A DNA stretch of 62,271 bases, counting the filler, from Platydemus manokwari (Eukaryota), in the NCBI GenBank assembly GCA_037951405.1. It is 6 parts of 6 records of this genome, joined end to end, with 100 filler letters (N's around TTAATTAATTAA, not from the genome) between each part and the next. Parts side by side here need not be neighbours in the genome. Positions count along the whole stretch, not along the records: positions 42,358 to 53,332 come from JBBMOY011005525.1; 5 more parts are not named here. One strand, 5' to 3'. Each line of letters opens with the position of its first letter. The first letter of the stretch is position 1. Shown here one piece after another: positions 3,401 to 62,271 of this stretch. The position numbers and the translations under genes were made by a program. Below the pieces are notes generated by a model. That model searched no databases. It was not told the origin of the DNA and worked only from the letters and a program-made list of their open reading frames with translations.

Positions 3401-4934
3401 CAAGACGGGTTCGTCAGGAGCTCATAAAATCTTGACACAAATAGGACGTAATCTTTAAATTTTCGACCATGAGACTATTTGATTTTGGGGAATGTTACGA
3501 GTGACGAAGTTTGGAATAGATGTGCCAGATTAAGATCAGATTGATTTTCATTATCCAACTAATTGTATTTTTGTAATGAAGATTTTACGAAGATAACAGA
3601 AAAAGTCTAAGAACGAGATCATCATTTAAAAGAAAATAATTGCAGAGGATCAGGGTGTAGAAATTGTACTGATTAGCTAGAAAACCAGTAATGTGATAAA
3701 ATAAGCGTATTAGCTCAGTTTTTTTAATATTATGCATGTGAAGGCCATTGGCGACCACGCTATTCAAATAAATGCAATTACAAGGAATCAACAGAAGAAG
3801 TAACTGCTGATAAGCATGGTATAATAACTCATTCGAAAAAGCAAGCAATGAGTCAAGTAGTTATAAACAACCACATACTATCTGTTTGCTTCAGATAGAG
3901 ATAGAAAAACGTGTTCGATGAAAGAAATAGCCTAGAAACTATACAATAAATGTTGAGGCATACCAGTACCAAAAGAAGAACGCTTGCGTGCAGACAATTG
4001 GTTCTGCAGTAGAGAAAACGGACACCAGAGAAGCTAGTGTCCGTTGAAACACGAATGTTTAATATACGGAGTAGAAAGTCATCACTTCAAATAGTGATAT
4101 TCAGAGCAGAAGGTAGAATTTTATATATTCATGACGAGATCAAGAAGCAATTTTATTCAATCGAAAACTCAGTGACGAGTTAGAAGATCAAAAAAACCAC
4201 AACATCTCTGACGCAAACATTTCTTCGGTGGAGTTGAATAAAAAGATACCAAGAAAACTCGATATGTAATTAAATGAAGGGAGCGGCAGGATGTGTAGTA
4301 TCGTGATGGTCAATGAATCTAAAGTAAAGATGTTGTGATATTTGTGGGCGTCTATGATAGTGAGGATCTAGAGCTATTTGAACAAATGGAAAGCCATAAA
4401 TTACAAAATAGCTTGATTACGTTTATTGTGGTGTTTTCAAGGGTGACAAACGCCCTACGAGGTATGCAGAAGTGATTGCCCAGTGGAGATGAATGAAACT
4501 CAGGGTTGTAATTGCAAAATGAATTTGTCCTGACTTTATCGGAATTTGACATTCGGGATTTAGGTGAAAGAGGTAGCCACAGTCGATTAATCACAATGTA
4601 ACAAAAAATATACTGATGAAGAAATATCGAAACAAGCACTGGAATCGATCAAGACTAGAAACACAGGTAGAATAGGAAGACTCATCATGGAATATGGAAA
4701 AATATTCATTGTTTCGAAATTGTATCTAGGCTGATATACGGAAAAACTCAGCTAGAATATTGTAAGTTGCCAATATTTTATAAAACATGCCCCGAACGCT
4801 AACTGAAAAGACATGACATTTAGTTATATATTTAAATACTATTAGGTAAATAATTAATATAATTTTATATAAAATCAAATTTTACACAAAATTAAATCTT
4901 TTAAAATTTCTTAATTCTATTTAAAATCCTCACA

Positions 4935-6150
4935 AGCATGAAGATTTACTGGAAGCCGTGTTTCGACGAATTCAAAAGTCGGGTTTGAAAGTGAATCCGG
5001 AGAAATGTACGCTTATCAAAGATGAAGTAAGATTTTTAGGCCACACAGTCAGTGCCAAGGGGATACGGACTAATTACGACAAAATCAAACAGATATGATC
5101 ATTTTTAGGCCTGACAAACTATTATTCCAATTCATCAAGAATTATGCTGTAAAAGCCGCTCTAATATGTGCCGACATCCATGGTCAGAATCATGTCAAAC
5201 AATTGTTTCGAAGCTAAAGTTAGCATCCTGTGAAACACCAATTCTGGATTGCCGGAGAGAAAACAGGATATTTGTACTCAATACGAATGCGAGTTTTAGT
5301 GCAATTGGTTTCGTTCTAAGCAAAGTTACCGAGAAAGGATACTGTGTTACCAGGAAGGAACTGCTGTCTATCACAAATATGCCATTTACTTTAGACAATA
5401 CTTATACGAATATTCATCAGAAAGCTCTTGTATTCTTGATCTCGACATGAAAACCGATCTGCCCTAAGTTTCAAACATGGATGGCGGCTCTGTCAGAATA
5501 CGATTTTGATTTAAGATACAGTAAAGGAGAGAATCATACCAACGCAGGTGGATTGTGTAGGATTGACAAGTCTCTATGTTTTCACTACTAGGCGAGACAT
5601 GATGGAGTAAAGACAGAAAAGCTTAAAACCAAATTTTTAGCCCAAATACAAATAAAATGGAAGACAATGCAGAAAATCCAGGAAGCACAGCATAAGGATG
5701 CAGAAATAGTGAAGACATTAAGATTTATAAATGGTGAAATAACTCCAACTAGCATGGAACTCTGAGATAAACATTCACTTTCGAGAATTACAGGTAAGCT
5801 GAAGGTGGTCCATAATATGTGGATGATGGATAAAAAGGAGAGATAATACCAAAAGATTTCGTGTCTCAATTTGTCAGAACAATTCACGAAGAACTCTGTT
5901 ACTCAGGCTTAAAGAAAACCTTCGCATTTTTGGACGGCAGTTTTTATTGGGTCGACATTTTTAACACCATCAAAGAGATACTGAAAGTATGTATTATCTG
6001 TGCAAAGAGAAAGGTTGATCAATCAAGGACTACGGAGTTTCTTCTGTCTCGGTTAGGCTCTGACTTTCAACAGCAAATCATGGTAGATATTGCTCAGGTT
6101 TAGCAAGTGGGTGAGAGTCATTGCTACATCTAAGAAAGACTAAAAGACAA
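4935..6150 (+). mobile_element. Ty3/Gypsy pol remnant (RT end, RNase H, integrase zinc-binding region), internally deleted
   Basis: LEAVFRRIQKSGLKVNPEKC..VRFLGHTVSAKGI; VLNTNASFSAIGFVLS..YCVTRKELL; WMAALSEYDFDLRYSKG..HTNA; IHEELCYSG..FYW..CIICAKRK. Many stops and frameshifts. Confidence 0.85.
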
Positions 6151-17100: not shown

Positions 17101-17229
17101 AATGGTATTTATTATTCAGTGACTATTTAATTTCAATTATTAGAATTCATCACGTGCCTCTTCTTTAAAATTTTTGATTTTCTCCATATTTGTTGTTATC
17201 ACTGTCAATTTTCATTCCAAATATAACTT

Positions 17230-18060
17230 TTGTCGGACTAACGTTAATAGTATTGGTAAATGGTCCTTGAAAATTACCAGTTGCTGCTGAAAACTCTAAT
17301 GGCATCTTAAGTAAACATTATTGTCCATTTTCTGTTGAAAACGTTGTTTTTACTTGGGATTCTTCTATTTAATATTATGGATTGCGCAAGTCAATAGATG
17401 TAAAGTACTTAGAACCGTGGAATATATCTAGCTTTTCATCTACATTTGGCACTGGGAGCACTTGTCTTTCTGTTATCAAATTTAACTGTCTGAAATCAAG
17501 ATATAGTATAATTATTTTTCTTTCTTTCATGTACAAACAAGTGAAGTGTCCCACCACGAGATGCACTTAATTATGACATCATTTTGCTATAGATTCTTAA
17601 TTGTTTCATTTAATGTTTACTTCTATATTTAACGATCGTTTACGCGGCTTTATGTTTTGTTATGCCTTTTCAAGCTAATATAGCATCGTTTCATGATATC
17701 CTCTACATTGATATCGATAGCAACTATTTGGCTCTTCTCATTACAGTCGTGGCACGTTACAACCTTTGGACAATCGAAATTTCTTGAAATATTTGTTGTA
17801 GCATAAACTAGTTTCGAAGTTTTCCTTACTTATTTCCTTTACCTTATGAATTTGCTTCCTTTCTTGTTATCAATCGTGTTCACATTCTTCTGGTCTAGTT
17901 GACCAACTAAAACCAAATTCCTCAGCGTTTTGCTGGTTTTGTTAATATCGAAATATTGATTACAGTTTTTCATAAGTTATTCAATATCTTCCCCTAGCCT
18001 GTATTTGTCCAGCGTTTGTCCGCACTAGTCGATATAGAATTGCATCCAAATGTGTATTCG
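17230..18060 (-). mobile_element. Ty3/Gypsy RT remnant
   Basis: YLDFRQLNLITERQVLPVPNVDEKLDIFHGSKYFTSIDLR...KTTFSTENGQ*..MPLEFSAATGNFQ, matching the Gypsy RT N-terminal motifs. Confidence 0.8.
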
Positions 18061-42357: not shown

Positions 42358-42549
42358 ATACTGCGTTTGATAGCTTATATAAACACCTTTCTAAAAAAGT
42401 ATTACCATACGACATTATATGCAAGCAATACTCCGAGCGACATCTTTTATCAAATCGAAATTTTAAGGTTATACACCCAATAATAATTTATTATTGTCTA
42501 TTTATTATTTGTAATTCGAAAAAGGGATATAGCTGCACAATAACATACA

Positions 42550-42710
42550 GGGATTGACCAATCCCGAGTATACAAAATCAATAAATCCAATAGAAACATG
42601 AGAAATAAAACGTGATACAAAAATTATGCAAAAATCTTGAATATAAGTACAGATCTACCAATTGGACGCCTAATTTTGTGTTTTGCTTTTACATTGATTT
42701 TGATAATTAA
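42550..42710 (+). repeat. Diverged dispersed repeat related to 32215-32420
   Basis: Same collinear blocks as 32215-32420. Confidence 0.5.
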
Positions 42711-43297
42711 AAGCTAAGTTTTTGGTTGTTTTCTATTAAATATGAACTGTTTTTCCAAGGTTAAAAGTTGTTGTATTCGTACTTAATAGTACGTGTTGGT
42801 GAAATACAGGTTGCAACCTTCGATTCTTTTGAACCCCAAAAATTATTTGGTGATTAATGCTGACGTTAGCCTTATTATTCGTCAAATATTTATTCTGGTT
42901 CTCACTAAGTGGTCGTGGATCGGTCAACTACAACTCAGGAGATACAGTGACCTCCTGACATTATATTTCATGAATGTCTCTACATACGGATGGACTGAAA
43001 AAAAATGGATGTAAATTGTTGTATGATATTCAAACATGTAGTTACTGGAACAATTATAGAGTCAAATATTTGGTGAGAATTATTCATCAATAAATAATTT
43101 TATTTCATAATCCAAGAGATAAAAACGAACTTGTCATATCAGTGTCTTTTCCAAGATTCTGTATTTCTTATTTTGTAAACTATTTATCTTTAATCATTGA
43201 AATATCAAATCGTCTATTAAATAGAATTTCAATTTCCTTTGCATTTACTCACATCTTTTTTGTTGGACTATTTTTGTTGAGTTTAGCACTCAACCCA

Positions 43298-43515
43298 ATC
43301 AAATAATCATAGAGAAGTGTTGTGATTAGAATGGGAACTTGGTTTTAAAACTATGTTTTGTCACTATTAGATATCTTTATAAAATGAGATATTAACTGAA
43401 TTATACAAATAAATTAAACATAGCAATTGTATATTAAATTAAGTTATAAAATTATCTCATGCTCGAATATTCATTATAACGAAAGAAGGCCATAGGATCT
43501 TTTTTCTTAAATTAA
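43298..43515 (-). mobile_element. ~550-bp TIR family, partial copy 3
   Basis: TTGGTTTTAAAACTATGTTTTGTCACTATTAG...AAAATTATCTCAT closely matches 59345-59462. Confidence 0.8.
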
Positions 43516-43836
43516 GTCCAGAAATCAATATAAATATATTGTACTTCTGATTCCAATGCAATTCCAAGGCAACATAAACATACTCTGATTCAGATACAAA
43601 ACCACTTCAGTAATAAACCGATCTGATGATCAAAATTCTTGAATTATTAGAATCTCATGAATATTTATGACATGAATAATTATCCTTTGTATGGATATTA
43701 TCTTAATTCTTTTAAATTATAAATCGATAAAAGATATTAATGGGAGGCCACAAATTCTAACTAAATGATTTAAACAACAAATAATAATTAAAGCAATAAT
43801 AGTCATATGATGATATTGATAATAAGAATAGTATTA

Positions 43837-43838
<2 letters not shown>

Positions 43839-43883
<45 letters not shown>
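43839..43883. repeat. (AAT)n microsatellite
   Basis: About 15 perfect units. Confidence 0.95.
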
Positions 43884-43886
<3 letters not shown>

Positions 43887-43954
43887 AAACAAATAATAAT
43901 AACTATTAGAAGTAAGTCGTTTTATACTGAATAATTTATTTAATACAATTGCGA

Positions 43955-44775
43955 TGTTATATACATAATTTTATTGTCGATGATGTAATAACGTCTTGGG
44001 AGATTTCTTGGGTTGTAGCAACTGAGAATTGCGCAATCATTAATCAGCATGCAATCAAACGACATATACACACCATACGTACGACGTTCACTTTTGGAAC
44101 ATTTGAATACATAGAATGTTTATACTTTTACATACTAAAAATAATTATTATGTGAAATTATCTTTTATCAATCAACATTGTAAAATTGTTCGCAAAACAT
44201 TTGGGTTTATATACTTTGATTTTTCTCGATTTTGATTGGTTAAAACTTTTTTACCAATATTTTGATTGGGTAACGAATTATTTTTCGACAGGGATTTTCG
44301 ATTTATTAAATTCGATTTTTATTAGGTGAAGAGTTATTGGGTTTTATATACAGGAATTTATTTCTATTTACAACTTTACGGCCGACCAATTTATTATTTG
44401 CAATTTTATTGTTCACTAGTTTATTTACAATTTTATTACCATATTTTGAATATTTACACGAGTTTTTAATATTTACAATTTTTCCTAGATTATTTCTATT
44501 TACAACAATTGATTTCCTATTTATGCTTTTTGTATTTACAATTTCATTCACTCATACCAGACTTATTTCTAATATATACAATTATACTACTATTATTTTT
44601 ACAATATACACCAATGTTTATATTTAAGCTACTATATACATCCATATTAATTTTGTCTATGTTCAATTTCATGCCCTGTAATTGTCAGGCCTCAATGACC
44701 CATCTATGGTAATCGTTTTTACGCATTTTACTATACACTTTATAACTCAGGATTATTAATACCAAAGTGGTCACA
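43955..44775 (-). mobile_element. Putative 3' LTR of the Gypsy element at 44776-50580
   Basis: On the minus strand it runs TGTG (44775) ... TAACA (43955), with U3-like short repeats (44340-44560), CCAAT boxes (~44268, ~44238), TATATAAA (~44212) and AATAAA (~43975) in the expected order. Boundaries are approximate and no clean PPT is visible. Confidence 0.6.
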
Positions 44776-44789
44776 CTTGTAATTACTAC

Positions 44790-46720
44790 TCCTAGAATTA
44801 TTGTGCCTATTTTTTTTTCCTATATCATTTGATGTTTTCCTAATTAGCATACTGGTCGTGATTTTCTCTTTAACTGTTATCGTTCTTTTTCTTAGTGTTA
44901 CTATAATCGTTTTCAATGTATTTCTTATCAGATTCTTGGGATGTATGATTAATTGTTCCCTATGTATTATTATTTTTCGATTATTCTTCTCGTAATACCA
45001 TATGTTTATTTGAACGTTTTAATCTTCATAAATTTCTTGGGTCAACACCCCCTCAGTTGATTTTATCAGGAATTGTTCTTTATTAACATGCATTCTAACA
45101 TTTATGCAATTTAATTCTTCCCATGTTATCTGTATCTGATTTAGAAATTTCTCTATGAACACTTTCCTTGGCATTTCAGGTGTTTGAATTATCATTGTTT
45201 TCATGTTTTTACCCTTTTTTATCATTGATTGGTAGAACACTCTCATACATTCTGTCATCAGACTTTCTCAAAAGACGCTCTTCTCTAACATTCATTTCAT
45301 TCAATAATTGCGCAACAAACTGTTCTTTATCGTTACTATCAATTAATGTTATCTGACCGTATCTTGAGTATGCCTTTATCTTTTCTTTTCTGAAATCCTC
45401 ATAAGAGAACATCATCATTGGGCTTTCACATGAATGAATATTGGGTAATACTAATAAGGCAGACATCATTGTTGCTATTCTAGGTAAGCGTCTCAATCTT
45501 ATTTCTGGTGGCTCAACTCTTTCTTTTTTAGCATACATTATTATAACTGCTATTATTATTACCGTAACCATAATGGTGAAACTTATTATACATGCTATTC
45601 TTAAATTTTTAATGTCCTTTTCGGTTCCCCTTATAACTTCAGTTAACATTATTCTTTCTTTAATCAGGTTACTTCTCCATTTTTGCTGTTCAATTTTCAT
45701 TTTATGTTTTAATTGATCTATTTTCCCCTTAACTATCTTTTCCCATTCTTCTCTCTTGATTTTATCTCTTATACTTCACATCCTCTGTTGATATTCTTTT
45801 ATCTTTTCCCATTCTCTATTTCTTACCGCTTTTTGTTCATTAATTACCCCATTATTCACCCAATCTGGTATGTTAATCATGAATTTATCCTCCTTAATTG
45901 CACATAACTTAAGATCTTTCTTACAATTACATTTAGAATCCAATGCATTCCATTGAAACTGCTTTGTTGATATTTTATGCAACCCCACTTTGGAAAGTAT
46001 TAAAGCTTGTTCTAACTCATCATTGCTCAGTGTTATCTTTACTTCCTTATCTATTGTTATTTTAATTGATGTTCCCATTAATGGTTGTAAATGATATCTT
46101 ATTTTCTTACAGTATGGTTCCCATGAAATTCCTATCCTTTCTTTTTCCTTTGGAACTTTAAATTTCCATTCATTTATAACCGGTTTTTTTCATTCATCAT
46201 TAATTGTAACCGTCCTATCGCTGATATTGTCATCTTTACCTTTCTTGGGCTCATGAATTCTATCATGACTACGAAATTTATTCTCCATTTTAGTTCTAAC
46301 TTTTCTTCCCACTTTCCTATTATTGTTATTTATCTTAATTTCTCTTTTTTACATATTTCTCCTAATCATTGATGACACTTTATAACTACATCTACCATTT
46401 TCCCCTTTTCATTAACTTATATTTCTTCAATTGTCCTTAATTTTCTTCAATTGCATTTATTTTGACATTCTATTCTTGCACGGTAGAATGAACTTTTTGA
46501 GTTCTAATTTATCAATTTTACAAACGGGTTCCATATCCTTATTTCTTATAAATGATAGTGTAGTTATAACATTTTCCACTTCATTCTCTTTCGTTTTGTT
46601 AAATTCCTTTATCGTCATGTTTTGTGGATTTATCGGGCTTATCATGGAACAAATTATCAAACAGATTATCACTAATTGACTTATCCTATTAATTGATATT
46701 ATTTCACATTCTTTCTCAAT
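44790..46720 (-). pseudogene. Env-position ORF of the Gypsy element (signal peptide, ectodomain, TM, second hydrophobic segment); frameshifted, family unrecognised
   Basis: LVIICLIICSMISPINPQ (signal-like, ~46675-46620); ORF pieces 46457..46672, 45776..46078, 45209..45700 and 45019..45258; TM IACIISFTIMVTVIIIAVIIMYA (45598-45530); IATMMSALLVLPNIHSC (45478-45428). Confidence 0.6.
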
Positions 46721-49700
46721 TTACTTTATGATGTTTATATTTAGGATATATTTCTGGGTTTGTTCTGGTTTCTTTCTTAAAGTATCTTTCCTATTTGCTA
46801 CTATTTGTGGTTCATATTCCGCTTTCTTAAACCTATTTACATGAACTACAGATGGGTCTTCATTTTTCTTCTTTTTAATAAACAGATTGGTATTAGTTAC
46901 TTCTACAACCTCATACGGTTCTTTATATGGTCTTTGTAATTTGGGTGAAATTCCTTTCTTAACCTCTGGGGCATAGATCCTAACCTTATCTCCTATTTTA
47001 AATCCATGACTGCATGCTTTTCTATCATGGTAATCCTTATATTGTTCTTGTTTGAATTTTAAATTCAACTTAGCATGTTGATACGTTTCTCCCAATCTTT
47101 CTTTCATTACAATTACGTATTCTTTTTCGTTTATTAATTGAGATGTCTTTGGCAGAAATTCAAGGTCTATTGGCAAATACGCATCCCTCAGGTGCATGAG
47201 GTAAAACGGTGAATAATTAGTTGCTTCGTTAATAGCTGTATTATATGCAAACCCCAATCAGTTGGCTTTTTATTTATGAAATTCGATAACGTATTTTGCA
47301 ACGTTTGATTGTAACAATCAAATAAACCATCTGCTTGTGGTCTATATGGAGATGTATTGATTTTCTTTATTTTAAAAGTCTCCGTTACTTCTCTAACGAT
47401 GTTACTTAAGAAGTCTTTCTCTCTATCAATCAATAATTTGCTGGGTGCTCCATATTGAAAAATTTTTTTTCTACTAGTAACTTGACTAAGGTCTCACTTT
47501 TATGATTTTTTACTGAGTATGCGAGTGACATTTGGGTGAAATAGTCACAGAATACTATTATGTATTTATTTCCTTTTTCAGTTATTGGTAACGGACCCAT
47601 TACGTCCATTGCACACATTTCCATTGATCTTCCTTCTGGTGGTAAAGGTTTTAACGGTATTTTTCTTATTCTACCGGTATTTTATCGTGTGATTGCACCA
47701 TTTCTCTATATCCTTTTTCATATTATCACATTAATATTTTGCTTTTAACTTTCCATGTGTTTTTCGTTTTGATAGATGACCTCCCAATGCTCCATCATGA
47801 TAGGATAACAACAAAAGGTTCCGTTAATCTTTTAGGTACCACTATTAAATTTTCGTCTCCATATGTTAGAATGTTTCCTTTATTTAACTTATATAATTTA
47901 ATTTTTTCACTATCTTCTCCTTTTTCTATGAACTATCTTATTTTTCCTTATTTTACTATCCTCTTTTAGCTCGTTTACAATCTCTTGCATGTCTATTTTG
48001 GTGTTAACAGTTTGTATAAGGAAATTTACAACATTTATTCCTAATGTCTTATTTTCTGATTTTTCAGGAATTCGGGACATCGGGTCCGCATTACCATTTG
48101 ACTTTCCAGTTCTATATATAATTTTAATGTTATGGTCTTGTAATTTTAACGCCCATTTAATTAATCGACTGCTGGTATCCCTGTGTTTCATTAGACTTTC
48201 TAATGGATTATTGTCGGTATTTAGTATTATTTCGCTTTCATAGATGTACTGACGAAATTCTTTTAATGCAAAAACTATTGCCAAACATTCTTTTTCTATT
48301 CCTTTTCAGATTCTTTTAACGATCTGCTTGCTCAAGCTATTACATGATCAGGTTGTCCTTCTTTCTGTTGTCCTAATACTGCTCCTAATGCCTCATTACT
48401 TGCGTCTGTCATGACTATGAATGGTTTTGTCATATCTGGGTATCTTAACACCGGTGCATGTGTTAGGTTATATTTTAGATTTTCAAACGCTTTGTTTATC
48501 TCCCCATCCTAATTTCATATTAATTTCTCCTTTACTTCTTTTTCCTCTACCTATTGTCTTGTCTATTTTTTTCTGTTGACCATGTTTTCTTTTATATTCT
48601 GCCGATGCCTTTTCATAGCATTATATATTGGCAAAGCTGTTTGTGCATATTTTTTCTTGAAACCTCCTATAATAGCCTGCCATTCTTAAGAATGTCTCAG
48701 CTTCATTCATTGTTGTCGACGCTGGAAATTTTTCAACTTTTTCTATTTTAGCGGGATCGGGTGCTATTTCTTTTGATGATATTATATGTCCTACGAATGT
48801 TACTTTAGGTTTAGCCAATCGACATTTTGTGGGTTTAATTTTTAATCCTGCTTTTTTTAACCGGAAAATCACTCTTCCTATGTCGATTAAATGTTCCTCG
48901 AATGTAAACTAATATATCGTTAATGTAGACCATTGGTAAATCGGTTAAAACGGTATTCATTAACCTTTAAAATGTTGCGGGAGCTCCATTTAAACCAAAA
49001 TACATTTTTACAAACTCATATAATCCTTCTCCTAGACAGAATGCTGTTTTTTCTATATCATCCTCTTTCATTTTAACTTGATTGATTCCCTTATTCAAAT
49101 TCAATTTGGTGTAAAACTTGGCTCCGTTTAACTTATCAAATATTTCCCTTATGTTAGGTAATGGAAATACATCCTGTTTTGTATTTTTATTTAATTTCCT
49201 ATAGTCTGCACAGAGTGTTATTTCTCCATATTTTTTCTTCACTGGGACCATATAGGTTTTAAATGGCGATTTACTTTTTCTTACAAGTCCAAATTCTTCC
49301 ACATCCCTAACTTGTTTTTCAGCTTCTTCTAACAACTTATACGGCATTCTCCGTGATGGTAATTTTATGGGTGTGTTGTCAGTCATTACTATTTCATGTT
49401 CTATTACTGCTGTTGATCCTACATCATATTCATGTTTTGCCATTAGGTCCTTATATTGGTCTATTACTTCTTGTAATTGCTCATTTTGTTCTAATGTCAA
49501 ATTTTCCTCTTGTATTTTTACTTCAGAATATTTTTTAATCCTATCAGGTGTATTAGCATCTACCATTGCTTCTCCTTGATGTATTATTTTATCCTCTGTA
49601 TCACAATTTATTATGTATACTGGAAAACATCCGTCTTTAACTTGTGCAAAGGTATTGATCATTTTAACATTTTCTTTAATCATTTTAGATTCTAACATGA

Positions 49701-50580
49701 ATGTCTTATCCTTATATTCCTCATTTATGAGTATGTGATATATCCCTTTACTCCATTTTGGGATTATCATGTTTTCGCATATTCTTATGATTTTATTCGG
49801 CTTTTCGATTTTATCATTACTTCTATTGGGCATATTTAAGTTCTTGTAATTTCTTAATTTTTCTATTTAATCGCTTGATTTTATTCGTAATGTACGCAAG
49901 TCCAAATACCATCCTTTAAGCCTTCCTAACAAATCCATTCCTATCAACACTGCAAATAATGCTTTTTCTATGACTTTAATCATGTGATCTCTTTTTATGT
50001 TTCCCATTATCAGACTCAAGACTACTTTCCCTACTGTTCTTATAGGTGCTCCTGTTGCTCCTGTTAATGTATCTGTGTCTACTTCTATTTTTTCCATTTC
50101 CTCCGTGTCTAATATTTTAGTGCTCACCAGTGATACATCAGCTCATGTGTCTATCAATGCTTTTACAAATCTTCCTTTTATTTGTACTATTATAATTGGT
50201 CTTGTACCCTTTTTAGGCGTTATTTGCACCATTCTTATTTTGTATAAATGGGGTTGTATTTGCGGATATAATGGTATGTTTTGCTATTTTTCACTTAATG
50301 CCTTAGTACTATCTATTATTTCTTCTATTTGCATTCTAGCCTGTCGATCTTCTAGTGCGAACATGGGTTTAATTCCTTCTACTGTTGGTGGTCGTTGGTA
50401 ATATTCTTGTGGATACTTATGACTTTTTACTTTTATAGGGTTATACATTGACTGTGGTTGTACTAATTGTAGTGGAAGTCTAGGGTTATTTTCTCCTGCT
50501 TTTAACAATTCTATATCTTTTTGATGTTTTACCTATGTTAGATGTTTTGCTATTTGTGGCCAGATGAAACACAAGCCTTG
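46721..50580 (-). mobile_element. Decayed Ty3/Gypsy LTR retrotransposon: gag C-terminus, protease, RT, RNase H, integrase
   Basis: Degenerate knuckle GLCFI..GH..AKH (~50575-50540); KALIDT*ADVSLV (protease, ~50165-50125); LCADYRKLNKNTKQDVFPLPNI, KTAF, YINDIL (RT); TDAS, EKECLAIVFALKEFRQY, RLIKWALKLQ, NADPMSR (RNase H); HDGALGGH, MDVMGP, SPYRPQADG, AYNT..YSPF, KLQRPYKEPY..VHVNRFK (integrase with GPY/F-like module). PR-RT-RH-IN order. Confidence 0.95.
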
Positions 50581-50583
50581 CTA

Positions 50584-52349
50584 AGAACACTTAAATACAT
50601 CCTTCAAGGTTTTTGCCGAAATGATCGATGAGAAAATCGCCTTTATCAATGCTATGATGTAGTATATTCCCAAGGAAAATGAAAATATTTCCCCAATTTC
50701 CTGAAAACCTCCGTAAAGACTATAGAACATTCCCTTAAAATGGTCTGCTGATAGCAACGCCTCATAATTGAGTGATCCGTCAATACTTCCTTGTAACACC
50801 TTATGCACCATATTCATTATGACTTTCTCTATTTGTATCGGAAACAACATATGCTTTCTAGCTTTTTCTATATCCTCAGCTGCGTATATTCCATTTTTAT
50901 CCATATTAGTGAATGGTTTAAAAGCTAAATTTCCTGTTGGTCCATTTGCTTTCAAGGTCTTAACATCACTACGCGGTTTTTTATCATCAGTTCCTATCCA
51001 TCTCCAATAATCAAATCGAAATACAGGATCCATTACATTTAAACAAGCGTCTATTGGAGGTGCCTTATAATTATGTCCTAAGATTATCCTAGTGACCGGT
51101 TGTAAGAACGTTTTTGGTTATTATATATTATTGGCATTTCGTTGGTACAATGCTCATGCTTCCTTATAACAAGATTGATTACTTTTTTGCACTTAAAGGT
51201 ATAAATTAATACTTTCCCTACTACTCGAGCAAATGTTCCTCTCTCCTCAAATATTATAGGTGCTACTAATTCCGGATTCGTTATTGCTAACGCTAACTTA
51301 GTTTTCAAGACTTCTCAACTTAACTTACAATCATTCAATATCAGTTCCATATAGACTTTCTCCATTAAATAGTCCAACTTATTGTTAAAGTATTGTGCTA
51401 GCTTCACATCCAACTTATTGACTTCTCTTTTGGCGTCTTTTATTTCATTCTCACTCAGGTATATTCCTTTATAGTTTGTTACTATAACCATTTGAGCACA
51501 TTTTCTATCTCGACCCTTATGTATAAACCTAGTTGCACTTTTTCCTTCTTCACTCATGTATACCGTTGGTGTTTCTTTCATTCTTATTTCAGATGTTTGC
51601 CTATTACTATTGGGTATATAACTTTCCGCAAACTTTGTCTCTTTAAATATTTTTCCATTTACTGCGTGCAACTTTCCTTTTTAATAACGTTAATAAACAT
51701 TGGTATGGATAAGCCTTATACATTATTAATGATGTTCCTGTGTCACATATTTCCTTCTCGTATTCACAATGTATCCATGCTGTCATTTTTTTAGTCTGAT
51801 CACTAAATGTAGCTTGGAATTCTCTTAATTCTATGATGTAATGTCTTAATGCTACTACATTTTCTAATGTCTTATTCCACACTTGATATTATGAACCCTT
51901 ACAGTAACCTTCTGTTCTTCTCCATCCTGCAGGTCCTATTGTTTGTCTTGTTATGCCTTTCCTTAATGTCATTGCATATCCTTGCGATGTGTAATATGTT
52001 CTTTTCTCAAATGATTGTTTACATTTTTCCTATGTTGGTATTTCTGGCATTGGTGCCCATGCAGGTTCTAATACTGTTGTATATGCTTCTGATGCCTATG
52101 ATCAGTGAAATATTAACTTCTCTGACTTTTTCAAACAGAAATTCGGACTCTTGAATACAGGTACATTTCCTTAGCTATTGATTTTGTTAAATGTACAGGG
52201 TATGATTCCGGACATTTATCAATGTCTAGCAATGAATATTTTTGTCCCCATCGTGGTTTTCCACAATCATATTCATCAATTCCTGTTTCAACACCTCCTA
52301 TTAATCCTACCAGATACATTGTAAGCAACGTTTGAACTATGGTGGTAAA
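50584..52349 (-). pseudogene. Chuvirus-like (Jingchuvirales-type) envelope glycoprotein, frameshifted and C-terminally truncated
   Basis: Collinear motifs across 5-6 broken frames: signal TTIVQTLLTMYLVGLIGGVETG; YDCG..YSLLDIDKCP; QESEF; PAG..EGYCKG..ENVVA; CEYEKEICDTG; KCAQ..TNY; YFNNKLDY..NDCKL; LALA..PE..GTFARVVG..FKC..CTNEMPI; GIY..DIEKARKHMLFP; FQEIG..LGIYYIIALIKAIFSSII (TM). Recognised from recalled family motifs, not from a database search. Confidence 0.8.
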
Positions 52350-53332
52350 CTTAGATTTTTGCTTAAGCTGTTTTTCTGATAATTTTATTTCATTTTGCAT
52401 TATGAGTTTTTCGTTCTCAATCATTTTTTCTAATATTGACTGTATTAATTTAAACCATCCTTGATTTTGATTAATTTCATTCTCATATTCATTTGATATT
52501 AATTCCGCTCCTTCCTCTTTGTCAATTATTTTATTATTCATTAAATTCATCGTCGTTTGCAGGGTTGTTATCATTCTTCCTGGTGTTTTCTCCTCATTTA
52601 AAATATTAATTACTTCCTTAGCTGTTTCCTTATCCGATATTTTGTTGCTTATTTGGTTTATGTCTTCTCTGTATTTACTCGTACAATGCTCTAATGCCTT
52701 TATTTGCAATCTTTCATTTTTATCTAAAGCGCTGGCTTCGCCACTAAGTGCTTGTAAATATTGTTTAATTTTTTCCTTTGCTTCTTCTCTTTGATTAAAT
52801 TCTTTAATTGCCTGTGCATGTGACTGTTTTTTCTCTAAATCGCGGATTTCGTCACTAAGTGCTTGTGTTTGATATTTGATTCTCCATTTAACTTTTTCTT
52901 CTATGTCAGAATCTTTAGGTGGTATGTCTCGTTCGCTTGATTTTAAAGGGTTGTCGCAATTTATGATTTTATTTTCGTCGAATGTTATGGGATCATCGTT
53001 GTTTATGATTTTATTTTTAATTTTATTCTTAACTCCTGGTGGTCTTCCTCTAGTTTTTCTCATTGTTGTTTCTTGATCTCTCATTTCCTTATTATCTTTT
53101 ATTTCTTCTTCTGTTTCAGTTCCTTTCTCTATCCTATCTTCTTCTCTTTTCCTTAACTCTTTTTCTTCATTCCATTTCCCTAACCTATTTTCTTCTATAT
53201 TTTTTCCTTGAACTTCTTATTCTATCATTTCTCCATTGTTACCATAGTTATATGCGACTAATTGATTTATTGGCTCATTTATAGCTTGAAATGTTCTTGA
53301 TGTTGATGGTATACATTCTTCTCTTATCATGT
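52350..53332 (-). pseudogene. Charged/coiled-coil segment with AT-hook, in frame with the glycoprotein signal peptide (probable polyprotein linker or integrase tail)
   Basis: ORF 52131..53084 runs RKTRGRPPG -> E/K-rich helices -> signal peptide -> YDCG without a stop. The same frame extends to the gap at 53333 with one TAA. Confidence 0.6.
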
Positions 53333-53432
53333 NNNNNNNNNNNNNNNNNNNNNNNNNNNNNNNNNNNNNNNNNNNNTTAATTAATTAANNNNNNNNNNNN
53401 NNNNNNNNNNNNNNNNNNNNNNNNNNNNNNNN
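53333..53432. other. Assembly spacer N44-TTAATTAATTAA-N44
   Basis: Same 100-bp linker; true gap size unknown. Confidence 0.95.
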
Positions 53433-54960
53433 AACCATTTCAGAGCTACATGATCAGTTCTCACAATAAATTTCTTACCATATAAGTAGTGCTTAAATTT
53501 TTTAACAAAAACATAGATGGCTAGCAACTCTTTTCTTGTTATACAATATTTACGCTGCACTTTTGTCAATACTTTTGATGCATACGCTATCACTCGTTCT
53601 TCACCGTTTTGTATTTGAGAAAGCAAGACTCATATGGCACCGAAAGATGCATCAGTTTCCAAAACATTTCCCTTCTTTGCATGGTAAACTTAGAATTGGT
53701 GGTGAAATTAATGATGTTCTAATTTGTGAATAGATGCAGTTGCTAAATTATTCCACTCAAATTTGCTTTCTTTCTTCAGTTATTGGTATAGTGGTTGGGT
53801 AATACCAGTAAAATCTATCATAAGCCGCCTAAAATAGCCACATAATCCCAGAAATACCTGTAATTCCTTGACACATTGAGGTTGTAACCATTTTTTTTTA
53901 TTACAACAAGCTTGTCTTCATATGTTCGTATGCCGTTTTGGTCAATCACATGTCCTAAATACTTAATTTGTTTTCTGAAGAAAAAACATTTCTTTGGAGC
54001 CATTTTCAACCCAGCTTCATCAATTCGATTTAAGACTCCTTCCAACATTTCATTGTGCTCATTGACTATTCTTCCAAATATCAGAATATCATCTAGACAG
54101 ACTTCGCAGTTTGTCCAATCTTCAGTCTTCAATACGACATTCATTAGTTTCTGAAAAGTAGCAGCTACTGAACATAATTCAAAAGGCATTCGATTAAACT
54201 GAAACTGTCCGTATCTAGTTCTGAATGCTGTTTTTTCTTTTGTTTCTTCCTCCAATTCTACTTGATGATATCCGTTCGCCAAATCTATTGTTGAAAAATA
54301 TTCTTATACAGCATCGAATATTTCTTCAGAGTTTGGTATAGGCAAAATTGGTCTGAACGTAGCTGCATTTAGCTTCCCATAATCTACGCACATTCTACTC
54401 GTTCCATCCTTTTCCTAACTAGCACTATTGGGAAATTCTACCCTGAATTACTTGGACTAATAACGTTTGATTCCAACATTCCATCTATTAGATGTTTAAC
54501 CTCTTCTAAACCCAATTCTACGAAGTTTGACAGCTATTGATTGATCAATGTTTGTTTTGATACTAAGTCCTCTGTATTTCGATAGAATTCTCATAAGATT
54601 ATTCTTATCCTCAGGATTCAGTTTATCATCTAAGTTCTGATCAACGTGTTTTAATATTTCATCTAATCGATTTTCTCTCTTTCCGGAACATAAATTATAC
54701 AACTCAACTGAATTCCAAATGCTGCTCTGGTTTATTTCATATACTCTTCTATCCAACCTAAATACATTCCAGTCTAAATTTTGTTGGTGCCATTCTCAAT
54801 TTGCTTCAAGCTTACTGAAACATATCCGTTATTTACTTTAATCAATGAATTGGCTATTATCAAATCCTTGCTACAAACACATACTCCAAAAACCTATCCA
54901 CTTTTCTGCTATATACGTCAACAACTATAGCTTTTACAAAGTAATCACCATCTTCCAACA
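53433..54960 (-). mobile_element. Ty3/Gypsy pol remnant (RT and RNase H) reading toward the gap
   Basis: MCVDYGKLN..PIP; DLANGYHQV..KTAFRTRYGQFQFNRMPF..ATFQ; CLDDILIF; KYLGHVI; ETDASFGAI; ERVIAYAS..YCITRKELLAI..FKHYLYG..RTDHVALKW. Confidence 0.92.
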
Positions 54961-55192
54961 GCACATACTTAAAGACTAATCGGACTATTATGAATCACTT
55001 ATTGGACTACATTACGAACGTGTAAAAAAATATTAATAATCGATTTACTTTTTACAGTCGAAAAAAATCCAAAGAAAATTAAAGTCGCTTTTATTAAAGT
55101 GCTTTTGGATTATAATTATAGTTGTATACACATATTATATAAATTCATTTGTTATCTACATAAATCAATACATATTATCAATTATAATAACA

Positions 55193-56491
55193 ATGAAAAT
55201 CATCAATATTTTGTCTATGCTTTGGAAATATTTTAATGAAATAATATTAAGTCAATGCGACGTGAAAAATAATTATCCAATATGTGAGCCTTGTAAGCAG
55301 AAAGTGTCGAAAAGATTCTTGACAAATAATTCTTCAACTCCTCCAATTAAAATTCGAAAATTAAATACCGTTGAAATCACAAATTCCTCAATGAATAACA
55401 ATGAATTAAAGACATTTATTTCATCAATTATCAAATATTTTAAATGTTCCAAATGTAAACTTTACGGAAAATCTTTTAAACAATGTTATATGGGTCACAT
55501 ATTTTGTCTTAATTGTATCAACGATCAAGGAGTTTACTGTGCGGACTGTAATGTTTTAGTGAAAACAAGTGATTTATCTCTTTGTATAATCCCTACCAAT
55601 GTTCAATCATGGATGAAATCCGATTGCCCTCTATGTCACAAAGAATATTTCCAAAATTATCTGGAGATACATCAAAACACAAACTGTCCAAATCGAAAAA
55701 CGATTTGCGATTTTTCCATTTTTGGCTGCACATGGTCAGGAACAGCAAATGAACAGACTCATCACAAAGACGAATGCCAATTTAAAAATCTCGAAGTGAA
55801 AAATGGTTTCGAAAATTATCAAAAGCATCTAGCTAATTTAAAAATATTGTATTCACCAGAGAATTATTTGCTAAGAGATTTAATCTTGAAAATCACCCTC
55901 CAAGAAAATGGATTGCGTGTAATCGTTAAAGAAACCTTGTTAACTAAAACCGAGATTTCTTATCTGACAAACTCAATTCAAGTAATTAAACACCAGAGCC
56001 CCATGATTGAATTACCTTTCAGTTGCTGCGAAGCTCACGGATTTTATTTAGAATTTATAATTGTTAACGACACCATTAAAAAAACACTAAAATTTCGTTA
56101 CACCTTAAAATCCGAAAGTACAACCAATGTAAATTTAAATTTTTGTTTATTAAATTTCAAATCTGATCTAATGGAAGAAGAATTAATATTCACAGACAAA
56201 TTTCATGGGCACCATTTTCAACAAGGTAACGAAGAATCGATTGCTTATGACATCAAAATATGTCACAATGATTATGTACCTGTAACTAATCATATCGTTG
56301 ATGCTAAACAAATCAGTTTTACTTTATGCACGCTGGCTAGATTTTTAAATAGATCTGTGACTAATCACGATGATTCGCATTCAACAGACATTGATAATTT
56401 TTATTCTTTATTAATCTTTTATTATTACTGTTTCACCAATCCAATATTAAGATTATTATTATCAATTTTTGGAATCAACGTGCATTTTTAA
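55193..56491 (+). CDS. RING (SINA-type) and TRAF-type zinc-finger protein, CYHR1/ZFTRAF1-like, 432-aa single ORF
   Basis: CSKC..QCYMGHIFCLNC..CADC (RING); CPLC..HQNTNCPNRKTICDFSIFGCTWSG..HKDEC (TRAF-type zinc finger); C-terminal KKTLKFRYTLKS..NFCLL..HF..NEE..DAKQISFTL resembles the CYHR1 C-terminal domain. Exact start and end are uncertain. Confidence 0.8.
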   Translation: MKIINILSMLWKYFNEIILSQCDVKNNYPICEPCKQKVSKRFLTNNSSTPPIKIRKLNTVEITNSSMNNNELKTFISSIIKYFKCSKCKLYGKSFKQCYMGHIFCLNCINDQGVYCADCNVLVKTSDLSLCIIPTNVQSWMKSDCPLCHKEYFQNYLEIHQNTNCPNRKTICDFSIFGCTWSGTANEQTHHKDECQFKNLEVKNGFENYQKHLANLKILYSPENYLLRDLILKITLQENGLRVIVKETLLTKTEISYLTNSIQVIKHQSPMIELPFSCCEAHGFYLEFIIVNDTIKKTLKFRYTLKSESTTNVNLNFCLLNFKSDLMEEELIFTDKFHGHHFQQGNEESIAYDIKICHNDYVPVTNHIVDAKQISFTLCTLARFLNRSVTNHDDSHSTDIDNFYSLLIFYYYCFTNPILRLLLSIFGINVHF

Positions 56492-58958
56492 TCATTTTAA
56501 TTTCATTATTAATATTGATTCCGGCTTTCATTATAATAATAATTTCTTTATGGGCTACAATTATTTGAAGTCTGAACTGGTTACTGCTAAAGCGAAAGGT
56601 TCAGTTTGAAAGGCATTTACAGGGTAATAACAATTCATTAAAATCTCAATATCTTTCAATATGGATAAAGAAATATTGAAGAGATTAGATTTTAATATTT
56701 TTAACTTGGAAATTTATTTTCTTTATTAGATGATTTTAAACAATTGATTTCAAGACAATGTCCTGATTTGATTTCGAACTATCATGTGAGCTCCGATAGG
56801 ACATTAAAGACGAAACAAGCCTAAATCATGGTATGTATCATTTACCTTTTAAATATGATATAACTATCATTATTAAGCTATGTTTTGCAGTATTAATGTG
56901 AGGATTTTTAAATCAATAATTAATTAAATGATCATTTTAAATAATAAAAATATTTATATTAAATCAATATCATTCGTTTGAATATTTTTGATAAAATAGA
57001 TTAGTTGGTTTGACTTTTTAAACATTTTCCTGTTCGTAATTTAGCAAATACCATCAGCTAACAATTAACATTGTCATTGTGAGGTTTTTTTAATACGATA
57101 AATAATAAAAATTTGCATAAAATTAAAATTATTAAAAATTGTACCAAAAGATATTTTTAAAAATGTTGATATTTATCAAATGATCTGGCTTAAAAATGCT
57201 GTTAAACTCTCAGTTTTAAAATTAGTAAACATAAATTTTAAATCTTTTTTTAAAAAAAAAGATGTAATATAAAAATGGGGGAATTTTTATATTTGGATTA
57301 AAAATGAAGACAAATCTGATGGAAATAATTTTAAATTTAATATTTTAAATTTTTTCGAAAATTGGTGTATTGACTAATATACTTTTGTTATGTTGTAGAC
57401 ATGACTTTTGATTTAAATATCAAGAATGAAGAAATTTTGTCAACTAACAGTCATTATTATTTTTAATACTTATAAATATTTTAATTATTTTTATTCATAT
57501 ATTATTAATATGAATATTTTTATATATTCTCATAATATTTTTAGTTCTTTTTATTTTTATGATTATGTTTTTATTACTAATCATCAATTAGTTTTTTATA
57601 TTTCAAAATTATTATTATTAACGATAATAGTTATTATATATTATGATATAATTTTACTATATTTAATTCGTTCACATCTCGCATTGAACCCTCCATGTTT
57701 CATTTTATAAAGACTTCTACTTTCAGATTTTATTCCCAAAATATCCACATTTTCATTAATAAAAGAACCAATTCGCTTCTGATCAAATCAAGAACATACC
57801 TTTCTTCACGACCCTTTATCAATATTGTGGAGTGCGTGGCAGCTTTAATTTGTGATATTCAAGTTCATTTTAAGAATTCAATGATCAGGAAATCTTCAAA
57901 TATCAATATTCTTAGGAGACAGTATCACTTCAAGTTGATACAAATCACCAAATTAAAGAAGGAATTAACTTTCGATTAACAATCGATTGGCATTCCTTAA
58001 AAATCTTCAAAAAGTCTAACTGTTTCGCGACAACTTCATAATTTATAAAAATTGTTTGACGTCGTGACATGGTTTAAACTGAAGAGACGTACACAAATAA
58101 AACAAATAATAATCACAGGTATTGGAATTTGTAAAATGAGTAGAATTTATTCCGATAAAACGAATGTCATTTTTAAATATTCAATGAATTTCTGAAGATT
58201 TTCCTTGGGAAGTGCAGTGTTGGACATTCTATTAAGCAACATTATTAATACATTTAACTAAAAATATCGTCATATTTTTTTGAAAGAAAATATAATATTA
58301 TTATTTGTTGTCCATAAATTCCACCATTATTTGTCAGAAATCTAACGACAATGAACATCAAATATGTCATATAGTCTAATAAATAATAACTGCATCAAAA
58401 ATCGCAATGTGTTCATTGAAAGCGGTAAAACAAATCATCAATAAATTCAAATAGTAACACAGACAGATTATTAAAGATAATCACAATCGGCTAAACAATC
58501 TTTATATATTCTTTTATTATTGAAGTTATTCGGTTATCTATTATACCAGAAAAACGAAATCATTTTATTGAAATAAATGGAATTATTTAATAGTTATGAA
58601 AATAAAAAATAATTATTAAATCTATAATAATAATAATAATAATAACTCACTGTTATTATAAATATATTGGAATAGAACATGGAATCTTCAAATCGATTGT
58701 TTTTGTTTGATGAGAATAAGAATATTTTTATCAAATAACAGTGTTATCCGTTCCACATCGAATTAGTTACAACGCTAAGCCGAGAAAAATATATTTATAT
58801 ATATATGAAATCATTCAAAGTTTAATAACAGGCATGCCAATTATCAAACTGACCAATCAGAGACATCGATCGTTTATTTATTATATTAATCCATGGAGAC
58901 GTAAATTCATATAGACTGTAAAATTCGAAAATATTTTTCATTTGAGTTTTTGACTACT

Positions 58959-59516
58959 GTTAAAAAAAGGGTCCCAAAATGAAATTTTTAATTTGTTGAG
59001 TGTATTTCAAAATTCTATATAGTTTATTTAATTATATTCTTTAAAAACATGTTGAATATTTTATTTAAGTACTTAAGAATTTTAGATGTTTGAAATCAAA
59101 TATTAAATACACTAGAGCTTAAAAATTGCGTAAAATTTGATTATTTGAAAAATTGAAAAAAGTAGGTCGAATGCAATTTATTGAAGATTAACGAGGAACA
59201 CTTTTTTTAACATTAGAAGCAAATTGAGAGAGGCAATGATATTATTAAACATATCTGTAATTAACTAACTCGATTTATAATTATAAAAATTTAAATTTAA
59301 AAACTCAAATAACCATATAGAAGTGTTATGATTATAATGGGAATTTGGTTTTAAAACTATGTTTTGTCACTATTAGTTATCTTAAAAAATGAGATATTAA
59401 CTGAATTATACTAATAAATCAAACAAGAAGTTATATAAAATTAAGTTATAAAATTATCTCATCCACGAAAGATCATTATACGAAAATAGGTCAAAGTGCC
59501 CTTTTTCTTAACTTAA
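58959..59516 (-). mobile_element. ~550-bp TIR element, copy 4 (inverted)
   Basis: Ends GTTAAAAAAAGGGTCCC / GTGCCCTTTTTCTTAAC; the body is the reverse complement of copies 1 and 2 (e.g. AACATTAGAAGCAAATTGAGAGA, AAGTAGGTCGAATGCAATTTATT). Confidence 0.8.
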
Positions 59517-61382
59517 ACCTAGAATTACTTCATTTTTTAAAGCGAAATCTGTGTGTTAAGTTGATCTGAAAATTTTGGTTGGTGAATTTATGATTTTCAA
59601 ATCACATTGGCTTGTGGAGATGTTTGTAGCATTGTGTATGAATCCATCATACAACAAAGTAGATCCAATTGGCAATTGTAAATTTCGAGATTTTTGGCAA
59701 TTTTTCTCAATGATTTTTCAATTTTATTTGTCGAAAATCCGAGAAGGAAATGTTTGGTATTGATAATTTTTTCAATATGGAAATTTATTCATAACGGTCA
59801 GTGTAAAGTTTAAAAAAATGACAAATTTTTATCAATTACCGTAGCGGGTATTGTGCTGATTTTATTTATGAGTGACTTCAACCAGATATAACTTCTATTT
59901 TATTTATATAGATTATATTATGGAATTTAATAAAAATTTGGAAATATATTATTATATCACGAGAGCTTCTACTTGTATCATATTTTTTATTCTTTGTTGG
60001 CTCTTTTGTCGATTAATAATCTCCGTCATCGAAAATTTCAGAGTCTCCATTCAGTGACGTTATTGGTTTTTAAATCGGTCATCAACTTTGTAAGACTCGC
60101 TTGGTATTTAGAAACAGAATAATTGTCGGTTTGATTTGATCCCGGAATTCTTCAGCCATTTTTTTAATTTACTTGAGCTGACATAGAATTCCTAAATATG
60201 CCTGGAATTGTGCAATTTTTTCTTATTTGATTATCTTTGAGTTCATTGGGATAGCTTGAGCATTTTTCCTTATCAACTTCGAATAATGTAGAACATTTCT
60301 TATGCTAGTAAATAACATGTTTATCATTTTATCGATTTGATATTTGATATTTTGTGGAGAAGATCTTCTTTTCTATTTGTCTGAAGATTGATCTGTGTTT
60401 TTGAAGTTGAGATTTGACATTTTATGTTGGCTTGGATTACCATATTCGGTATATCATCATGTGATTATGCATTAGCATTTGGTAACCAGGTAGGCTTCTA
60501 TTTCATTTTCGATTCCACATTTCCTGCAGAATCCTAGATTTGAGTCCAAGCTATCGTTAACTTGCAGCTTGTAAGTTCTGCATATATTAATGAAGTAGAA
60601 TTTATATCTTATATTTAATTTTTAATATACTTGTTGTAATATATATTTATCAAATAAAAGATGATATCCTTTATGATCAGCTTTTCTTTACAGTTTAAGC
60701 CGTACTTGTCTGGACGTATTAAATAAATCATCACATGCCAATGCATTTTTGAATGAGTTAAAAGTGATAATTAAAAATGTATTTATTCCATTATGATTAT
60801 GTCTCGGAGCTTGGACAAGTTAAAGTAAATCCTGAATTGGTTTTCATTTACCAACCTATACCGATTGTACAAACTTATTCACGGTCTATTTAAAGACATT
60901 TAAAATTTCCACTGAGTAAAAATTTAAAAGAATTCGTCAATCCAAATTTAATTTCTTCGTAATAATCAAATAAAGTATTCCCTGATAATTCAATGAATCA
61001 TTCGGATATCTTGTGGAGAACCGCTTCAAGAAATATATCCCGATGACAGGCATAACTTAATAAATATAATGACTCATTCTTTATTATTTTATTGTGTCTT
61101 TCTCCGATGGATTTGCTTAATTATAGTTTCTTCTTTTTGTTACTTGTATTCGTGGCTAAAATTCGATTTATATTTGCTTTCAATTTCTCTGAACTAGTTC
61201 TGTTATTTACGCATTATGAGAATTTTTAAATGAATTAAAATTATATTCCTAATATATATATTAAATGTATTGTTTTGTTTAAATTATTTGATTTAATATA
61301 TTTTTATGTGATTTGACTTTTCGATTCGATTTCAATGCGTGCTTTATAAAATAGTAGCGACTTACATACATAATGACAAATA

Positions 61383-61630
61383 GCCATGCATTAAATAAAA
61401 ATAATATCCATGCATTAAATAAAATAAATTACCGTGCATTAAATTCGCAGAGAAATTCTCTCTGCTTTAGTGGAATTAATTTCAGAGAATTTCTCACTGC
61501 CATGATAAATCATAGTGCATTAAACATATATGCACGGCATTAAATTAAATTTACAGAGAATATCTGTGAATGACTCGCTGCTGCCTATATAAGGCGGTGA
61601 CTGTAATCATGAAAGCCCACAATAAAGGAC
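61383..61630 (+). promoter_or_regulatory. Clustered short repeats followed by a TATA box (LTR U3-like or promoter)
   Basis: GCATTAAA x5 and CAGAGAA x3 (two in near-palindromes), then CCTATATAAGG at ~61584-61594 and AATAAA at 61621. Confidence 0.35.
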
Positions 61631-62271
61631 ACAATATAAGGGCACGATATACGAGAACACCAGAACATAATAGGCAGATTTTTTATAAGAACCTGAACGT
61701 AACATCGATGATTCATTGCCGGGACGGGGATTAGGATATGTCCAGTATTTTCTACTGGAAGAACAAACAATAAGATAATACATTTAAAATCACATATTCA
61801 ATTATATATAACGCATATTCTTCCTGTTTTATCTAGCCGAGCTCGAAAAAACCTCTGAAGAAACGGATACCGACCTAAAAGAACGAAGGGTAACTGTTTT
61901 GTTCAACACCTGCTTCCCTGAATTGTATATAAAAGTAGTAGTAAAATCATTTGAATATTGTGTTCATTGTTAATAATTGTATACAGTATAGTATAAGTAG
62001 TGATTTATAACCTCATGATTGTATAGAAGAAATAATTTGTGTATAATTATAATTAATAAAAAATCATTGTAATACACACATTGAATTGGTTTTAAATCTG
62101 CCAGTAGGCCTAAGACATTACAATTTCATGATATTTAATTCATTTGTCATTCATCACCTTTTTAAAGTTACTCTGGTCCATTATTAAGTGAGACTGATAG
62201 TAAGAATCAATAACATAAAAAATCAATATCATAAATAGGACAATAATAAAGGCAATTTTCAAAAATAAAAT

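Follow-up and report, generated by a model that had tools for sequence, protein, structure and literature searches.

In Burro/GYPSM1, giant gypsy-like LTR retrotransposons of planarians, env sits between gag and pol in the same reading frame as both and is preceded by a BCL2-like motif; the available portion of the Burro account describes decayed copies of the Burro type, with stops and frameshifts, in Dugesia japonica (PMC6431247). A GAG-ENV-POL design has also been reported for errantiviruses with an HSV/gB-type Env in Platyhelminthes, Nematoda, and Bryozoa, nine flatworm ones being given in the accessible part of that report (PMC13524379). The same chuvirus glycoprotein family has been captured by another LTR element, the Anakin BEL/Pao elements (PMC12440569, PMC10084718, PMC13524379; accessible portions), and for arthropods the part of PMC10084718 at hand states that no clear gypsy capture was found. 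Anakin, as outlined in these portions, is a mosquito BEL/Pao element, whereas the relatives matched by the pol region described below are gypsy-type and place Env ahead of pol.

We analyzed a 62,271-nucleotide stretch of the Platydemus manokwari assembly GCA_037951405.1 (the window), in which the segment at 52350-53332 borders a scaffold gap. This segment very probably links Gag and Env in a single decayed gypsy element of the Burro-like kind. The Env of this element runs into protease and reverse transcriptase (RT), and its Gag would be located within the gap or on the far side of it (Table 1). The element has a gB/mononegavirus-type Env that precedes pol and is in frame with it, and its pol domains follow the order PR-RT-RH-IN; these features are shared with the Burro-like/GAG-ENV-POL gB-type group, Burro and the published elements being compared here by description and not by direct alignment. 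The original prediction was a pol-env polyprotein with an internal signal peptide, of which the polyprotein and the signal stand and the order does not, since pol comes after Env.

Table 1 Features of the element and of its surroundings, in window positions
Feature	Positions	Strand	Basis
Fixed 100-base scaffold gap with 12-base linker	53333..53432	.	Sequence
RT-RNase H fragment from another gypsy element	53435..54506	-	Domain search, alignment of relatives, identity comparison
Pre-Env linker, charged and helical, one in-frame stop (53217-53219)	52350..53330	-	Frame scan; placed like the pre-Env linkers of relatives, between presumed Gag and Env
AT-hook-like motif RKTRGRPPG	53034..53060	-	Translation; GRP motif of the same type before Env in P0003, P0006, P0057, and P0009
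Helical region with a Q-G-W motif at its end (52463), positioned where relatives have a Bcl-2-like motif	52400..52772	-	Motif position compared with relatives
Internal signal-like hydrophobic stretch of Env	52296..52340	-	Hydropathy; aligns with the same stretch in relatives
Chuvirus/gB-type envelope glycoprotein (PF24664), stops and frameshifts, TM from 50688	50545..52271	-	Pfam, four pieces
Aspartyl protease, in the frame of the Env end, one stop	49870..50220	-	RVP E 3.8e-7, X placed at stop
PR-RT spacer, in the position where the accessible part of PMC6431247 gives a dUTPase-like domain for Burro	49560..49866	-	Alignment of relatives
Reverse transcriptase, frameshifted	48660..49230	-	Domain search and alignment of relatives
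RNase H, frameshifted	48060..48495	-	Domain search and alignment of relatives
Integrase, frameshifted	46826..47823	-	rve E 9.3e-5 and 0.023; pieces 32-57% identical to relatives
Second membrane protein, broken: signal-like stretch 46684, ectodomain, TM 45592, weaker third hydrophobic stretch 45478	45023..46720	-	Hydropathy; no match to the proteins of relatives

Translation bore out the description of the segment as carrying an AT-hook core, an acidic region, and a charged helical run in frame with an internal signal and the start of the glycoprotein: the motif (read 53060-53034), the charged stretch, the hydrophobic peak at 52340, and YDCG at 52271 share one minus-strand frame. Over 289 codons the linker is composed of 21% aspartate plus glutamate and 19% lysine plus arginine, and the hydrophobic peak stands alone, with a 15-residue KD value of 1.83 compared to 0.36 for the runner-up. 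The frame had been said to run without a stop from 53332, which is incorrect; with the stop at 53217-53219 in frame, 315 open codons lie ahead of YDCG (353 counted from the gap). This stop is not common to all copies, since eight of the 98 contigs of run X1, a possible source of the assembly, that cover 52900-53332 differ at this codon and one is missing six bases there. Seven X1 contigs extend past 53330. Pfam returned no match for the linker, no second copy of 52350-53332 was found within the window, and word-index protein searches with the 361-residue frame and with the Env C-terminal piece found nothing, both being weak blanks.

Downstream of the signal, PF24664 (Monjiviricetes_fusion) matched four pieces in the order of the profile, with E values of 8.5e-8, 8.6e-4, 6.2e-10, and 8.3e-21. 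From 51117, the frame of the Env C-terminus and TM continues through the protease into RT over 717 codons with five internal stops, compared to 97 stops in one of the remaining frames and 75 in the other over the same stretch. The order downstream of Env is PR-RT, followed after frameshifts by RNase H and integrase (50220-46826), and Pfam was blank for the PR-RT spacer. The sequence is free of N throughout 42358-53332, and one X1 contig spans 50068-50526 with no differences, an agreement that is not independent of the assembly. With its many stops and about ten frameshifts, this copy is dead and unable to make the polyprotein. No LTR pair was found in 42358-62271, and the gap cuts off the 5′ part of the element. 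No ankyrin, BIR, or MATH domain was found in the pieces scanned by Pfam, and neither a Gag domain nor a zinc knuckle is present in the window between the gap and Env.

The Env piece, used as query in a full search, retrieved 55 matches, from which 14 long and high-ranking ones were domain-scanned; 13 of these bear the glycoprotein, and P0013 is without it. Protease or RT follows Env in the same chain in nine of the 13, and a pol domain precedes Env in none. From Env through integrase, the window is collinear with P0003, P0018, P0057, L001, and L002. CCHC knuckles lie ahead of Env in P0009 (three of them), P0011, P0017, P0018, P0056 (a near copy of P0017), and L002, the last being a single frame of 3703 codons that reaches from the Gag region with its knuckles through Env and pol to the post-integrase TM and includes a ubiquitin-like stretch (E 0.0026). 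The distance from knuckle to Env in these relatives is about 235 residues at the shortest and over 800 at the longest, so the 353 knuckle-free codons of the window fall within the range. All alignments that reach into the window linker include the signal and the Env start, and the linker alone gave no significant match to relatives. In further pattern searches, two of 132 matches in metagenome contigs and none of 125 in viral contigs were confirmed.

The segment had been taken for an integrase C-terminal tail, with the rest of the integrase concealed by the gap and the order being RT-RH-IN-tail-signal-G. The RT-RNase H beyond the gap (54506-53435) does lie on the same strand and read toward the segment, as had been noted, so that strand and order agree across the gap; the gap, whose stated length is nominal, could hold the roughly 1.3 kb needed, and an integrase followed by an in-frame signal does occur in this family. 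However, Env is continuous with the pol downstream of it, pol before Env was found in 0 of 13 relatives, and the proposed order would require two pol genes on one chain. The gap itself consists of 44 N, a 12-base linker, and 44 N, identical at five places in the window, and as a fixed 100-base linker it gives neither a size nor proof of adjacency. Moreover, the RT-RNase H beyond it is of a different lineage. On shared positions with each of six relatives, the copy downstream of Env is 48-55% identical and the copy beyond the gap 41-44%, whereas the two window copies are 32-36% identical to each other; the downstream copy is nearer the Env-bearing relatives in all six comparisons, by a modest margin of 7-14 points. 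Judged by these identities, the RT-RNase H regions on either side of the linker belong to different elements. A tree of eight RT rows with no outgroup had long branches and was uninformative.

The AT-hook had been interpreted as fitting an integrase C-terminal tail, a reading that the relatives contradict. Leaving aside eight stand-alone glycoproteins, the pre-Env part is long in 13 relatives (11 proteins plus L001 and L002). An AT-hook-like GRP motif lies before Env in four of these, which form three independent clusters, P0006 and P0057 sharing one; it is absent in the other nine. In P0009, three CCHC knuckles are followed by the motif and then by the Env signal. Because it is found in the pre-Env linker of relatives, and in P0009 behind the knuckles, the motif is no marker of an integrase tail; at the level of sequence it is a feature of the Gag-Env linker. 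An RGRP arose in 17 of 20,000 shuffles of the segment, a frequency to be read with the motif having been picked after it was seen. No literature on an AT-hook in a gypsy retrotransposon integrase polyprotein was found. We therefore consider an integrase tail very improbable; the segment is likely a linker behind Gag, because the Env frame continues into the enzymes downstream.

If the segment is such a linker, an intact copy would encode one chain, Gag-linker-signal-Env-TM-PR-RT-RH-IN-signal-ectodomain-TM. Gag and the linker would reside in the cytosol, the internal signal would thread Env into the ER and would likely be cut by signal peptidase, and the Env TM would bring the chain back to the cytosol for PR-RT-RH-IN. 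The second signal, after integrase, would export a further type I membrane protein. With signals and TMs alternating in this manner, Gag and pol would be cytosolic and both ectodomains would lie in the ER lumen, while signal peptidase and the element's own protease would separate the parts of the chain. The AT-hook-like motif would remain on the Gag side, where it could bind nucleic acid or chromatin.

Env might instead be made independently of Gag, with translation starting at a methionine shortly ahead of the signal on a message that is spliced or begins internally, which would leave the linker mostly untranslated or dispensable. In-frame methionines do lie just ahead of the signal, at 52424 and 52400, and the pre-Env linkers of relatives vary greatly in length and content. 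Nevertheless, 289 open codons precede the signal despite a GC content of 28% in the window, and the relatives keep a single frame from Gag to pol. We regard such separate production as an improbable replacement for a polyprotein; it could occur in addition to it.

Taken as a Gag-Env-Pol element, the locus requires a corrected annotation, in which the glycoprotein is assigned to the pol gene that follows, and it represents one more broken copy of an already published GAG-ENV-POL design. Like Burro/GYPSM1, as set out in the accessible part of PMC6431247, it combines a mononegavirus-like env in frame with pol, a PR-RT spacer, and decayed copies. It differs from Burro in being compact from Env to RT, with one protease and with ankyrin and BIR not seen, and the view given by the window ends without Gag or LTRs. 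The BCL2-like motif that precedes env in Burro is weakly seen in the relatives found here, and the same part of the Burro account names neither an AT-hook nor a post-integrase membrane protein (PMC6431247). With the gB-type errantiviruses, as presented in the portion of PMC13524379 at hand, the element shares a Ty3/gypsy pol and a gB-type Env located before pol, and comparison by eye of a 42-residue stretch of Env with the printed sequence of Smed_errantivirus_2 gives 22 matching residues; those elements are intact, whereas the window copy is broken. The terms "AT-hook," "Bcl," "fibronectin," and "polyprotein" do not occur in the accessible main text of that report (PMC13524379).

A GGW motif lies 50-80 residues ahead of the Env start in P0005, P0008, P0021, and L001, and its counterpart in the window is a QGW 62 residues ahead of the Env start. 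Pfam Bcl-2 matches to P0005 (E 9.6e-4) and P0008 (E 0.2) were both under the cut-off, and an alignment profile matched Bcl-2/Bcl-xL chains over 24 positions with E values of 0.1-0.3, ranked behind designed helical proteins. Predicted structures of the window helices were poor (pLDDT 59 and 58). Bcl-2-family chains made up six of the 25 matches listed by Foldseek for the window model (best E 3.1). A model of 52931-52272 built from the sequence alone (pLDDT 59) had its matches solely among generic helical bundles (best Z 7.6, rmsd 2.8, 74 aligned), the best VIA match of a second window model was unrelated (Z 5.7, rmsd 4.0, 68 aligned), and no Bcl-2 chain was among the 50 VIA matches listed for either model. 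Atlas searches gave no usable match for window residues 150-290 and scores all below 0.9 for P0008 residues 1-125. When the linker was compared with relatives pairwise, its scores were equalled by 51 to 114 of 500 shuffles; against a five-sequence profile, the score was equalled by 283 of 499 shuffles, a number that fell to 14 of 499 when composition was left uncorrected. There are hints of a Bcl-2-like domain in the linker, but it is not shown.

At the other end of pol, the signal at 46720 had been presented as a separate case of the same in-frame pol-plus-signal design. A signal-led membrane protein does follow integrase there, and its hydrophobic stretch at 46684 is in the integrase frame, but a stop at 46721-46723 intervenes, and the signal belongs to the same element as the glycoprotein. 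The glycoprotein and the protein at 46720 are accordingly two slots of one element and not alternative cargoes of a single swappable C-terminal slot. In each of the five relatives that extend beyond integrase, a signal-like stretch is followed by a TM; the signal of L001 is visible in one scan and below the threshold of another. Their post-integrase proteins also share a Cys-Leu-Thr/Tyr motif (5/5), which we take to be fibronectin-III-like; Pfam FN3 did not match the post-integrase cargo of L001 or L002. The window protein follows this layout (46684, 45592) but is without the motif and has no match to the five relatives (best blastp E 5.4; profile E at least 0.2), and a word-index protein search with a piece of it found nothing, again a weak blank. 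A search for literature on a fibronectin type III transmembrane protein downstream of integrase in LTR retrotransposon polyproteins found nothing on topic. Since the post-integrase proteins of relatives hardly match one another, with L001-L002 the sole significant pair, swapping and divergence are indistinguishable here.

We tentatively suggest, with more doubt than confidence, that these elements have two exchangeable slots, the Gag-Env linker and the post-integrase membrane protein, and that the window fills the second with a protein different from the fibronectin-like one of its relatives. The linker modules would then be AT-hook, ubiquitin-like, or Bcl-2-like in different mixes, the window post-integrase protein would combine a helical stalk with a third hydrophobic stretch, and the swappable slot would exist after integrase and not for the glycoprotein. 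If the post-integrase protein is swapped cargo, the elements would exchange surface proteins independently of the fusogen, which would offer a testable handle on cell-to-cell movement.

Several observations concern the relatives themselves. In L001, an additional signal-ectodomain-TM module lies after Env and ahead of the last protease (residues 1585-1771 of the long frame, about nt 4750-5320). It shows weak similarity to the module that follows integrase in L002 (E 0.007-0.02), indicating that a membrane module can occupy a second position. L001 and L002 each contain an RNase T-type exonuclease domain in a separate downstream frame (L001 10617-12107, plus strand, E 1.4e-5; L002 12085-13473, plus strand, E 0.0011). 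Several protease-like repeats per chain are found in P0057 (seven stretches), P0009, and P0008, and P0057 additionally has ankyrin and C2H2 domains. The Gag-Env-Pol chain of P0018 is labelled as a Flavobacteriaceae MAG protein and is likely animal DNA in a bacterial bin.

Elsewhere in the window, plus-strand frames at 500-1613 resemble by eye a putative non-LTR retrotransposon that ends in a restriction-like endonuclease, and additional decayed gypsy RT/RNase H fragments lie at 4931-6013 (plus strand) and 17219-17506 (minus strand). An uninterrupted frame of 483 codons at 55040-56491 (plus strand) contains Cys/His-rich stretches that resemble a RING and a TRAF-type zinc finger (zf-TRAF E 0.028), has no PDB match, and may be either a host gene or an accessory gene of an element; TRAF-related and RING motifs are carried by Burro, according to the accessible part of its description (PMC6431247). 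Finally, a direct repeat of about 200 bases occurs at 43299-43504 and 59305-59506, 16 kb apart and outside both pol regions, its copies being 76-93% alike in pieces.
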